DNA from: Candidatus Woesearchaeota archaeon
Lineage (GTDB): Archaea; Nanobdellota; Nanobdellia; Pacearchaeales; GW2011-AR1
Direction: 5' to 3'
DNA: 64,000 nt
Assembly (NCBI GenBank): GCA_964385425.1
Contig: CAYLOQ010000001.1
Location: 161,420-225,419 of the forward strand
A model generated the notes under the pieces. It did no database searches and had not been told where the DNA came from. It worked only from the letters and a program-made list of their open reading frames with translations. Made by a program: the position numbers and the translations under genes. Within the stretch, counting starts at the first letter, position 1; every line of letters begins with the position of its first letter. Of the stretch, positions 11,547-45,862 are shown in pieces.

Positions 11547-11680
11547 TGAGCCTGCACGGATTTGAACCGTGGACCCCTACCTAGCTGAGGATAAGAAAAT
11601 ACCCTTATCAGAATCACCTTCTGCTTGACTTTTATATCAAGGCAGAATGTAGTGCTCTAACCAGGCTGAGCTACAGGCTC
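11547..11680 (-). tRNA. tRNA-Ile(GAT) with two introns: 30/31 (36 nt, 11613-11648) and 37/38 (23 nt, 11583-11605)
   Basis: Acceptor GAGCCTG/CAGGCTC+A73, D arm GCTC/GAGC, T arm CACGG-TTCAAAT-CCGTG. Removing both introns gives a 75-nt cloverleaf with anticodon arm CTACT-CTGATAA-GGTAG; both junctions fit BHB geometry. Confidence 0.9.
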
Positions 11681-11704: not shown

Positions 11705-11712
11705 ATTTATAA
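11705..11712 (-). promoter_or_regulatory. Probable TATA box of tRNA-Ile, overlapping the stop codon of the LAGLIDADG gene
   Basis: TTATAAAT on the minus strand 25-32 nt upstream of tRNA G1. Confidence 0.5.
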
Positions 11713-12372
11713 GTTTTGTGAATTCAAAAATAAATTATATTTTTTAATATGCTTTGGATTCTTAGGTCTAATGTTTTCTATAAATTTATGAAACATTTTA
11801 ACACCCCTTATTGAAATAACATAAGCTCTTTGTCTTTTAGCATCTTTATTGAATAATTCGGAATGTCTTGTAACTCTAAAACCCAATTCTGATAATATCT
11901 GAAGAAGTTGTTCTGAAAGTTTAATAGAAATGGTTCTCATCTCCATCCTGGGATATAACTTTTTATTTTTCTTCTCTAAATAAATTCCCCCGTCAGTATC
12001 GAAAAGTCCCCTAATAATAGAAATCTTAAGATCCTTATTTTCAAAAAAGAGAGAAGGGATAGAAATATCAAACTTTTTTCCCAATGGAAGTCCTAGCTTT
12101 TGTTTAAATCTGATTAAATCATCATTCCAAATCTGAAAACCAAAAACTCTTGTAGAGGGCATCTTTCTCAAGCTTATATCAATATCATAAAGAAGCTTAA
12201 AGATTGGTTTAACTCTCTCTACATAATGAGGTTTATCATCTTCTATGTGACCTCTAAGTTGATATATTCCCCTTAACTTTCCTTTATTATTGTAATAATT
12301 CATGCTCCCATCACCTACATGCCAACCAACTTCCTCTGCTAATTCTTTAGTTATTTTTCTTGGGATATTCAT
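11707..12372 (-). CDS. Free-standing two-motif LAGLIDADG homing-endonuclease-like protein
   Basis: LAEEVGWHVGDGS and IIRGLFDTDGG motifs about 105 aa apart. Confidence 0.85.
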   Translation of the reverse strand: MNIPRKITKELAEEVGWHVGDGSMNYYNNKGKLRGIYQLRGHIEDDKPHYVERVKPIFKLLYDIDISLRKMPSTRVFGFQIWNDDLIRFKQKLGLPLGKKFDISIPSLFFENKDLKISIIRGLFDTDGGIYLEKKNKKLYPRMEMRTISIKLSEQLLQILSELGFRVTRHSELFNKDAKRQRAYVISIRGVKMFHKFIENIRPKNPKHIKKYNLFLNSQNL

Positions 12373-12521
12373 TTTAATATATTTTTTCGTATATACTTAC
12401 ACATTCCAGATACTCTCTGATGAATCACAAGATTTTGTTTTGCGTGGTGTTCAGAAAATCCAACTATATCTTTTTTACAATAAGGACATTTTTTTATAAC
12501 TTTTTTCTTTTGCTTAACCAT
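12369..12521 (-). CDS. Small zinc-finger-like protein (50 aa)
   Basis: Manual translation MVKQKKKVIKKCPYCKKDIVGFSEHHAKQNLVIHQRVSGMCKYIRKNILK; ATGA overlap with the LAGLIDADG start. Confidence 0.65.
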   Translation of the reverse strand: MVKQKKKVIKKCPYCKKDIVGFSEHHAKQNLVIHQRVSGMCKYIRKNILK

Positions 12522-26994: not shown

Positions 26995-27123
26995 CGTTTC
27001 CCGTTTACTTATGACATATAAAGCCGTAAGCAAAACCCGGGTAGGACTCGAACCTACGACCTAACGGTTTCTACGAAATAAAACCTAACAGCCGTTCGCT
27101 CTACCAGACTGAGCTACCGGGAC
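26995..27123 (-). tRNA. tRNA-Asn(GTT) with two introns: 37/38 (17 nt, 27069-27085) and acceptor-stem 70/71 (38 nt, 26998-27035)
   Basis: 5' GTCCCGG, D arm GCTC/GAGC, anticodon arm AACGG-CTGTTAA-CCGTT after splicing, T arm GTAGG-TTCGAGT-CCTAC. Splicing at 70/71 restores CCGGGAC+G73. Confidence 0.85.
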
Positions 27124-27195
27124 TTAACAATCTTAAATTATGTTTACTTTTAAAGATTACTAATTTCTTTAAAATCCACCATAAAAATTTTTAAA

Positions 27196-45753: not shown

Positions 45754-45862
45754 TAGGCTCGGGGGGATTCGAACCCCCATCGGCCGGGTTTTTCAAAATA
45801 TTTTATGGTAATCATAAACTAAATTCCGAAACCGGACATTCTATCCGTTGAAATACGAGCCT
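45754..45862 (-). tRNA. tRNA-Arg(TCG) with a 37-nt 37/38 intron (45789-45825)
   Basis: Acceptor AGGCTCG/CGAGCCT, A20, G37, T arm GGGGG-TTCGAAT-CCCCC; intron GAAA pairs with T32-C35, followed by the AA|C bulge. Confidence 0.85.

Follow-up and report, generated by a model that had tools for sequence, protein, structure and literature searches.

The tRNA-Ile(GAU) gene and its introns

The window, that is the whole stretch of 64,000 nucleotides that was analysed, carries on its minus strand (11680..11547) a tRNA-Ile(GAU) gene of 134 nt with discriminator A73 and no encoded CCA. Two introns in the anticodon arm set apart a micro-exon of seven nucleotides. Upstream on the same strand lies an endonuclease gene of the LAGLIDADG type, and the gene for the tRNA-splicing endonuclease (EndA) begins at the far end of the window. 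The features are given below, with the central, outer and inner helices of the bulge-helix-bulge (BHB) motifs denoted H, h and h′.

11547..11680 (-), tRNA-Ile(GAU) gene, recognised by its RF00005 match and by a spliced form equal to the intronless orthologue L043
11649..11680 (-), exon 1, tRNA nt 1-30 (acceptor 5′ strand, D arm, A26 and C27-C30), parsed by hand and by orthologue comparison
11613..11648 (-), intron 1, 36 nt, between nt 30 and 31, reading AUUCUGCC...GGUGAU, found by BHB scan (H=4, h=2, h′=6)
11606..11612 (-), micro-exon UCUGAUA, 7 nt, nt 31-37, with the whole anticodon G34-A35-U36, placed by orthologues and metagenome contigs
11583..11605 (-), intron 2, 23 nt, at the canonical 37/38 position, reading AGGGUAUUUUCUUAUCCUCAGCU, found by BHB scan (H=4, h′=5)
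11547..11582 (-), exon 3, nt 38-73 (A38, anticodon stem 3′ strand, variable loop, T arm, acceptor 3′ strand and A73), parsed by hand and by orthologue comparison
11707..12372 (-), free-standing double-motif LAGLIDADG gene, 221 aa, matching Pfam LAGLIDADG_3 (PF14528) with 35.9 bits
63662..64000 (+), 5′ part of the EndA gene, which runs off the end of the window, matching PF01974 and PF02778

The match to Rfam RF00005 over 11680..11547 scores 47.8 bits (E 4e-07 for the window, gathering threshold 29). Its alignment covers model positions 1-71 of a full-length cloverleaf, with 64 nt inserted in the anticodon arm, and the insert was parsed by hand and with a BHB scan. ARAGORN did not call the 134-nt gene in the window, and a genome-wide RF00005 search missed it together with a tRNA-Ala and a tRNA-Tyr gene; tRNA gene counts from that search are lower bounds. 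The first-pass annotation had placed a two-intron tRNA-Ile(GAT) at 11547-11680 and left its strand unstated; its coordinates are correct, and both the RF00005 match and the identity of the spliced form to an intronless gene bear it out.

Removal of both introns yields a tRNA of 75 nt with the anticodon arm CUACU-CUGAUAA-GGUAG (the arm foreseen at first pass), anticodon GAU, A37 and A73. This predicted product is identical over all 75 nt to the intronless gene L043 of a congeneric genome, which scores 68.6 bits with RF00005 and is called Ile-GAU by ARAGORN; because the two agree letter for letter, a chance origin of the two-intron parse is excluded. The mature sequence is predicted from the DNA of relatives. 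In metagenome contigs from samples of the source type, an allele joins 11582 to 11649 through exactly the seven letters of the micro-exon. A search for RNA runs from the organism turned up DNA metagenomes only. As these runs are of DNA, the joined allele was taken to be the intronless allele of co-occurring relatives and not spliced RNA. An alternative parse as tRNA-Gln(CUG) was rejected, since it places C at position 37 and has no supporting orthologue, while the Ile parse reproduces the intronless genes exactly.

The BHB motif of intron 1 (BHB1) has a central helix of C25-A26-C27-U28 (11654..11651) paired with GGUG of the intron (11618..11615), a 5′ bulge A29-C30|A and a 3′ bulge A-U|U31. 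Its inner helix of 6 bp (UUCUGC/GCAGAA) goes on beyond a bulged C as UUGA/UCAA to about 10 bp overall, and its outer helix has 2 bp only (G24-C32 and A23-U33). Forming this motif opens the last pair of the D stem and the top of the anticodon stem. The scan agrees exactly with the helices, bulges and hairpin for which the 30/31 intron had been termed a strict BHB, but in the folding model BHB1 is not a textbook strict motif, its outer helix being predicted at P = 0.003 only. For intron 2, the motif (BHB2) was found as proposed earlier, with C32-U33-G34-A35 paired with UCAG of the intron; the bulges are U36-A37|A and C-U|A38, the inner helix is GGGUA/UAUCC and the outer helix is the 5-bp anticodon stem. 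Both introns therefore have H = 4 bp and bulges of 3+3 (3-4-3 BHB), and the predicted cuts yield a tRNA identical to that of the intronless orthologues. The flanking helices are of at least 2 bp in both (intron 1, h=2 and h′=6; intron 2, h′=5 and h=5 after removal of intron 1, 3 before).

For comparison, 60 relatives were searched for tRNA-Ile(GAU) genes, which were then extracted, while the order-wide set comprised 401 genomes. All four intron states were met. The gene has no intron in at least 10 close-relative genomes, the 37/38 intron only in at least 6, the 30/31 intron only in two (G132 and G320) and both introns in 16. These single-intron states imply that the two introns are modules independent of one another, each of which can be spliced alone. 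At least 18 genomes from 3 families of the order carry the 30/31 intron in tRNA-Ile(GAU), always with H=4, h=2 and h′=5-10 and with an invariant 3′ end GGUGAU|U. An exact search of the order with the 13-mer GGTGATTCTGATA gave matches in 35 of 401 genomes, of which only those in a tRNA context were counted; about half of the matches lay outside tRNA genes, in coding sequence, and were left out of the count for intron 1.

In an alignment of 16 genes with intron 1, 97% of the cells of the drawn structure are paired. Seven of the ten pairs of the inner helix change on both sides, a result equalled by none of 500 shuffles and by no slid register. The central and outer helices are invariant in this alignment apart from one change of U-G to C-G, and as their pairs do not vary, covariation is silent on them. 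The 3′ strand of the central helix of intron 2 varies among orthologues (UCAG, UUAG, UCGG, UUGG) and always pairs with CUGA, by wobble changes only.

With ARAGORN and the genome-wide first-look search both giving no call, the gene might be thought a decaying, non-functional copy with unspliced insertions in place of introns, a reading that has no positive support otherwise. It is the sole Ile-GAU gene among the approximately 39 tRNA genes found in a genome that is 91.6% complete, and for that reason must be functional. Its exons are identical to those of intronless orthologues, both insertions have the exact 3-4-3 geometry, and intron 1 is kept with compensatory changes throughout the 16 aligned genes. 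Decay of the gene is accordingly regarded as highly improbable.

In four orthologous loci (L046, L048, L050, L054), a partial direct copy of the first 15-23 nt of tRNA-Ile is present upstream of the gene, followed by 55-110 nt of unrelated sequence. These copies may have been left by an element that formerly occupied the D-loop or that supplied a replacement 5′ half.

Splicing enzymes and the order of intron removal

The two motifs share C32-U33, as the first-pass annotation had pointed out, these nucleotides serving as the outer helix strand of BHB1 and as half of the central helix of BHB2. The strict hBHBh′ versions are consequently incompatible, and to this extent the earlier view of the motifs as mutually exclusive holds. 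It does not extend to the cores, which do not overlap and lie 3 nt apart. By the BHB scan, the central helix, both bulges and the inner helix of BHB2 are all intact in the unspliced precursor. What intron 1 alters is the outer helix. The 5-bp anticodon stem that the 37/38 intron had been said to need is available only after intron 1 has been removed, but a substitute of 3 bp exists before that, made of U31-G39, U-G40 and A-U41, with the last two nucleotides of intron 1 contributing. This substitute uses A-U-U31, the 3′ bulge of BHB1, and is the sole outer helix possible with intron 1 present.

Explicit-structure energies were -37.7 kcal/mol for the cloverleaf with BHB2, -38.6 kcal/mol for the cloverleaf with BHB2 and its substitute outer helix, -34.1 kcal/mol for strict BHB1 and -38.2 kcal/mol for both cores together. 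The nearest-neighbour energy of the conformer with both cores is thus equal to that of the cloverleaf/BHB2 fold and 3-5 kcal/mol better than that of strict BHB1, and the same ranking was obtained in 12 further two-intron orthologues. In partition-function folding, the central helix of BHB1 has a probability, P(H1), of 0.84-0.88 in the precursor, rising to 0.93-0.98 without intron 2; P(H2), the value for the central helix of BHB2, stays below 0.01 with or without intron 1. The folding model misses the cloverleaf even for the mature tRNA and is therefore uninformative for BHB2. For the same reason, free RNAfold predictions were rejected as evidence on BHB2 or on order, and only the signal for H1 and its inner helix was kept. 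Folding with each intron deleted, which had been proposed as a check on ordered splicing, consequently gave a usable answer for one motif, P(H1) rising from 0.88 to 0.98 without intron 2, and none for the other.

The modelling shows that BHB1 would form readily and independently of intron 2. It gives no indication from the sequence that the presence of intron 1 hides BHB2. In an obligatory order the later motif would be unable to form before the earlier intron leaves; here the clash is confined to the strict outer helices. The structures permit either order, and the ordered splicing that the first-pass annotation had taken the sequence to imply does not follow from it.

The EndA encoded at the end of the window is a protein of 179 aa with the N-terminal and catalytic domains (PF02778, 43.2 bits; PF01974, 102.5 bits in the genome scan and 101.2 bits with the protein) and is the sole tRNA-splicing endonuclease gene found in the genome. 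It aligns over residues 26-179, without insertions, to the Methanocaldococcus jannaschii EndA (1a79), with the Tyr/His/Lys triad aligned, and in this it differs from the N. equitans and ARMAN-2 enzymes, which carry extra residues in a region where it has none. No paralogue or beta subunit was detected at E < 0.1 among six-frame ORFs, although at 91.6% completeness of the genome the absence of a beta subunit is not certain. A weak second match to PF01974, considered as a beta subunit, was rejected as it is SepF. By sequence the enzyme is of the alpha4 type, with a single catalytic alpha unit bearing the triad and no beta or fused units found.

Relaxed motifs are cut efficiently only by enzymes that have loops broadening their specificity (PMC5829648; PMC6379350), and the alignment suggests a narrow specificity for the enzyme described here. 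The 14 other parsed intron-bearing tRNA genes of the genome have one canonical 37/38 intron each, which fits an enzyme that needs well-formed BHBs. An RtcB gene is also present in the genome. The source of the DNA was marine sediment and the host is a tiny DPANN archaeon of the Pacearchaeales type, SCGC AAA011-D5 being a genome of the same genus. The closest genomic relatives of its EndA are found in MAGs labelled Candidatus Pacearchaeota, Woesearchaeota or Nanoarchaeota, and orthologues of the same length occur throughout MAGs with the first two labels, so that the description of the genome as Pacearchaeota-like can be retained.

From these features we infer the following route, which we consider likely, with room for doubt. 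A single functional gene would be transcribed as a precursor of 134 nt with two BHB introns. The 30/31 intron would be offered to EndA by an alternative fold, in which GGUG pairs with C25-A26-C27-U28 and melts the end of the D stem and the top of the anticodon stem, and the 37/38 intron would be offered in the ordinary way on the anticodon stem. EndA, presumably as a homotetramer of its single alpha unit, is expected to cut both introns, and RtcB would ligate the exons, in two successive cut-and-ligate rounds and not simultaneously. The 30/31 intron would be removed first, and the 5-bp anticodon stem would then be restored for a strict-specificity enzyme acting at 37/38.

That splicing takes two successive rounds rather than one is very likely, because the strict motifs overlap, because cores 3 nt apart are too close for two EndA tetramers at once, and because simultaneous cutting would free the micro-exon with the anticodon. 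After a double cut in one round, this 7-nt exon would be held by at most four base pairs, and these to an intron that is discarded. Either sequential order would keep it covalently attached to one neighbour, with the acceptor stem holding the halves for RtcB.

As to which intron leaves first, removal of the 30/31 intron probably comes before that of the 37/38 intron, as a preferred order that is not proven obligatory. It is favoured because its motif is independent, because its removal restores the 5-bp stem and because EndA looks to be of narrow specificity. The evidence for independence can also be read as leaving the order free. In that case the introns would be independent modules and EndA would take whichever BHB it met first, on a precursor that flips between folds or holds both cores, so that both single-intron intermediates would occur. 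BHB1 does not depend on intron 2, BHB2 has its core and a 3-bp outer helix before intron 1 is removed, conformer energies lie within about 1.5 kcal/mol in 13 orthologues, both single-intron gene states occur in nature, and the micro-exon stays covalently attached in either intermediate. The outer helix of BHB2 in the presence of intron 1, however, consists of two G-U pairs and one A-U pair and is reduced to 2 bp in orthologues with a CUGCU stem. By analogy with the M. jannaschii and M. kandleri enzymes, an EndA that lacks insertions broadening its specificity would be expected to cut such a site poorly (PMC5829648). A free order is therefore held to be the less likely course, though not a far-fetched one.

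The reverse order, with the 37/38 intron removed first, appears unlikely. It would start from a mostly cloverleaf precursor with intron 1 protruding from the anticodon stem as a hairpin, and refolding would then expose BHB1. The cloverleaf/BHB2 conformers (A, A2) are indeed 2-4 kcal/mol more stable than strict BHB1, and the rise of P(H1) after removal of intron 2 points the same way. Against this, the full precursor already forms H1 with high predicted probability, C27-U28 are claimed both by H1 and by the anticodon stem that BHB2 relies on, and the outer helix of BHB2 is interrupted one pair from its 3′ bulge. Removal of the 30/31 intron first thus remains the preferred order.

In the crenarchaeal cases of Tocchini-Valentini et al. 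and of Sugahara et al. from 2007 and 2008, the later motif is reportedly unavailable until the earlier intron has been removed. The gene described here differs from these reported cases in that the core of its second motif is already there in the precursor and only the outer helix is impaired. The hosts differ as well, this being a DPANN archaeon with a single-unit EndA and not one with an (alpha-beta)2 enzyme bearing the Crenarchaea-specific loop. The likeness to the multi-intron pre-tRNAs of Crenarchaeota and Thermoproteales lies in the two BHB introns, one canonical and one in the anticodon stem, in a motif that is completed only after the other intron is gone, and in processing over repeated rounds, each with two cuts and one ligation. 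That pre-tRNAs with several introns are spliced in order is no new concept (Tocchini-Valentini et al. 2009, as cited in PMC6379350).

Within the same superphylum, disrupted tRNA genes are known from N. equitans, ARMAN-1/2 and other DPANN archaea, and alpha4-type EndA is associated there with non-canonical and multiple tRNA introns (PMC5829648). Candidatus Pacearchaeota RBG_13_33_26 was included, with counts per genome, in the survey of Kaneta et al. (2018), in which DPANN alpha4 EndA enzymes with an 'L3' loop accompany disrupted tRNA genes (PMC5829648), a finding that counts against a narrow specificity of the present enzyme. Multi-intron tRNAs and ordered splicing are hence already known, the disruption of tRNA genes in Pacearchaeota was surveyed in 2018, and the earlier remark that the class is not new agrees with the cases cited in the two papers (PMC6379350; PMC5829648). 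The two-intron tRNA-Ile adds one well-documented Pacearchaeales case to this class and changes little in it. With one orthologous gene in all four intron states, identical exons and a host with an apparently one-subunit EndA, it does lend itself well, as a natural system, to studying how an alpha4-like enzyme deals with a non-canonical anticodon-stem intron and whether RNA folding enforces the order of splicing.

The adjacent LAGLIDADG endonuclease gene

The association with the LAGLIDADG gene is of more interest than the two-intron tRNA itself and is worth following up. The gene is intact and ends 26 nt upstream of tRNA-Ile (29 nt from the last aligned residue). Among the 401 genomes of the order it has 22 close orthologues (56-71% identity), all intact, and every one of these is followed on the same strand, after 27-70 nt, by a tRNA-Ile(GAU) gene, whatever the intron state of that gene. 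What lies further upstream varies, so the endonuclease gene tracks the tRNA gene and not the surrounding synteny. The motifs GWH[IV]GDGS and FDTDG are invariant in 21-22 of the orthologues, and the acidic catalytic residues are retained.

Among the 22 linked tRNA-Ile genes, 6 have both introns, 1 has the 30/31 intron only, 5 have the 37/38 intron only and 10 have none, so that introns are not required beside the endonuclease. All 10 of the intronless linked genes have altered letters in the D stem or the anticodon stem. The common uninterrupted sequence of the anticodon arm is found in none of the 22 linked genes versus 8 of 27 unlinked ones (Fisher p = 0.006, uncorrected for phylogeny and biased sampling).

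This pattern would fit a LAGLIDADG enzyme specialised on tRNA-Ile(GAU) that cuts the DNA of the uninterrupted anticodon arm (approximately nt 25-43, a candidate target), with the introns as its immunity partners, spread by co-conversion. We put this forward tentatively, as a possibility somewhat short of probable. Alleles beside the endonuclease would survive only if the site were broken by the 30/31 intron, the 37/38 intron or both, or were substituted, and co-conversion driven by repair would let the endonuclease gene and the introns spread jointly. The introns would then lie so close to each other, with the micro-exon and the need for sequential splicing that result, because both have to fall within a single recognition site of about 20 bp.

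Collaborative homing, in which a free-standing endonuclease acts with an ORF-less intron, is known from F-CphI and the psbA group I intron of cyanophage S-PM2 (PMC6083498), and a literature search found no paper that describes it for archaeal tRNA introns. As in the phage, an intact free-standing gene of the homing-endonuclease type sits beside a conserved gene with ORF-less introns, its presence is patchy among close relatives and decayed copies occur. Unlike in the phage, the interrupted gene is an archaeal, cellular tRNA gene, its introns are of the BHB type and spliced by proteins instead of being self-splicing group I introns, 10 of the 22 linked tRNA genes have no intron at all, and the target of the endonuclease is a candidate only. 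If the proposal is true, it would amount to an archaeal, protein-spliced version of collaborative homing and explain in concrete mechanistic terms how non-canonical tRNA introns are gained. If functional, such a link would also put the long-standing question of how archaeal tRNAs gain introns, and how these spread, within reach of a direct test.

Several further observations concern this gene and its relatives. An overlapping ORF of 50 aa with a CxxC...HH pattern resembling a Zn finger (12369-12521, minus strand) precedes the LAGLIDADG gene and was found only in this genome. In G153, the region from -327 to -27 of a two-intron, unlinked tRNA-Ile (L072) holds an ORF of 100 aa that ends in ...SDSQSL at the position where the LAGLIDADG proteins end (...NSQNL or ...DSKSL elsewhere); this ORF is probably what decay has left of the endonuclease gene.

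The genome under study (G000) has four other LAGLIDADG paralogues (C5:22549-23151, C5:34674-35306, C1:227785-228405 and C3:62380-62988). Three of them lie less than 100 nt from tRNA-Arg(CCU), tRNA-Leu(CAA) and tRNA-Met(CAU) and the fourth 420 nt from tRNA-Thr(CGU), a proximity far above chance for about 39 tRNA genes in 847 kb. A homologue of 44% identity in another genome (L197, G246:C28:2471-3091) ends right before an apparent tRNA-Lys-like 3′ half and may be an endonuclease gene inside a tRNA intron. Homologues of 36-37% identity (L198, L200-L202) are situated just upstream of tRNA-His(GUG) genes.

Other intron-bearing tRNA genes of the genome

In several of the other tRNA genes, nested introns were initially considered. 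With correct end padding these resolved into single canonical introns, and the notion of many multi-intron genes was rejected. Two tRNA genes with canonical introns lie in the window on the minus strand, tRNA-Arg(UCG) (45754-45862) with an intron of 37 nt and tRNA-Asn(GUU) (27032-27124) with one of 17 nt, the end of the latter gene reading ...CCGGG|UUUUGCUU...AC. Elsewhere in the genome, a custom scan for acceptor and T-arm sequences was the only search to find tRNA-Tyr(GUA) (C11:1295-1490), which has 196 nt with an insert of about 120 nt, and tRNA-Ala(UGC) (C4:64599-64732), which has 134 nt.

Eight canonical 37/38 introns of this genome, each in a different tRNA, have at their start a common module some 25 nt long, CGCAGAACCGAGGTTCCGCACCTCC or a close variant of it. 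The tRNAs are Lys-CUU, Arg-UCU, Lys-UUU, Gly-UCC, Val-UAC, Ser-UGA, Ser-CGA and Ala-UGC, with loci such as C1:141165-141278, C6:3463-3579, C2:9188-9317, C5:21927-22039, C2:74444-74579, C3:64574-64699, C2:76711-76833 and C4:64599-64732. The recurrence of the module suggests either duplication or transposition of introns among tRNA genes or a common binding site.
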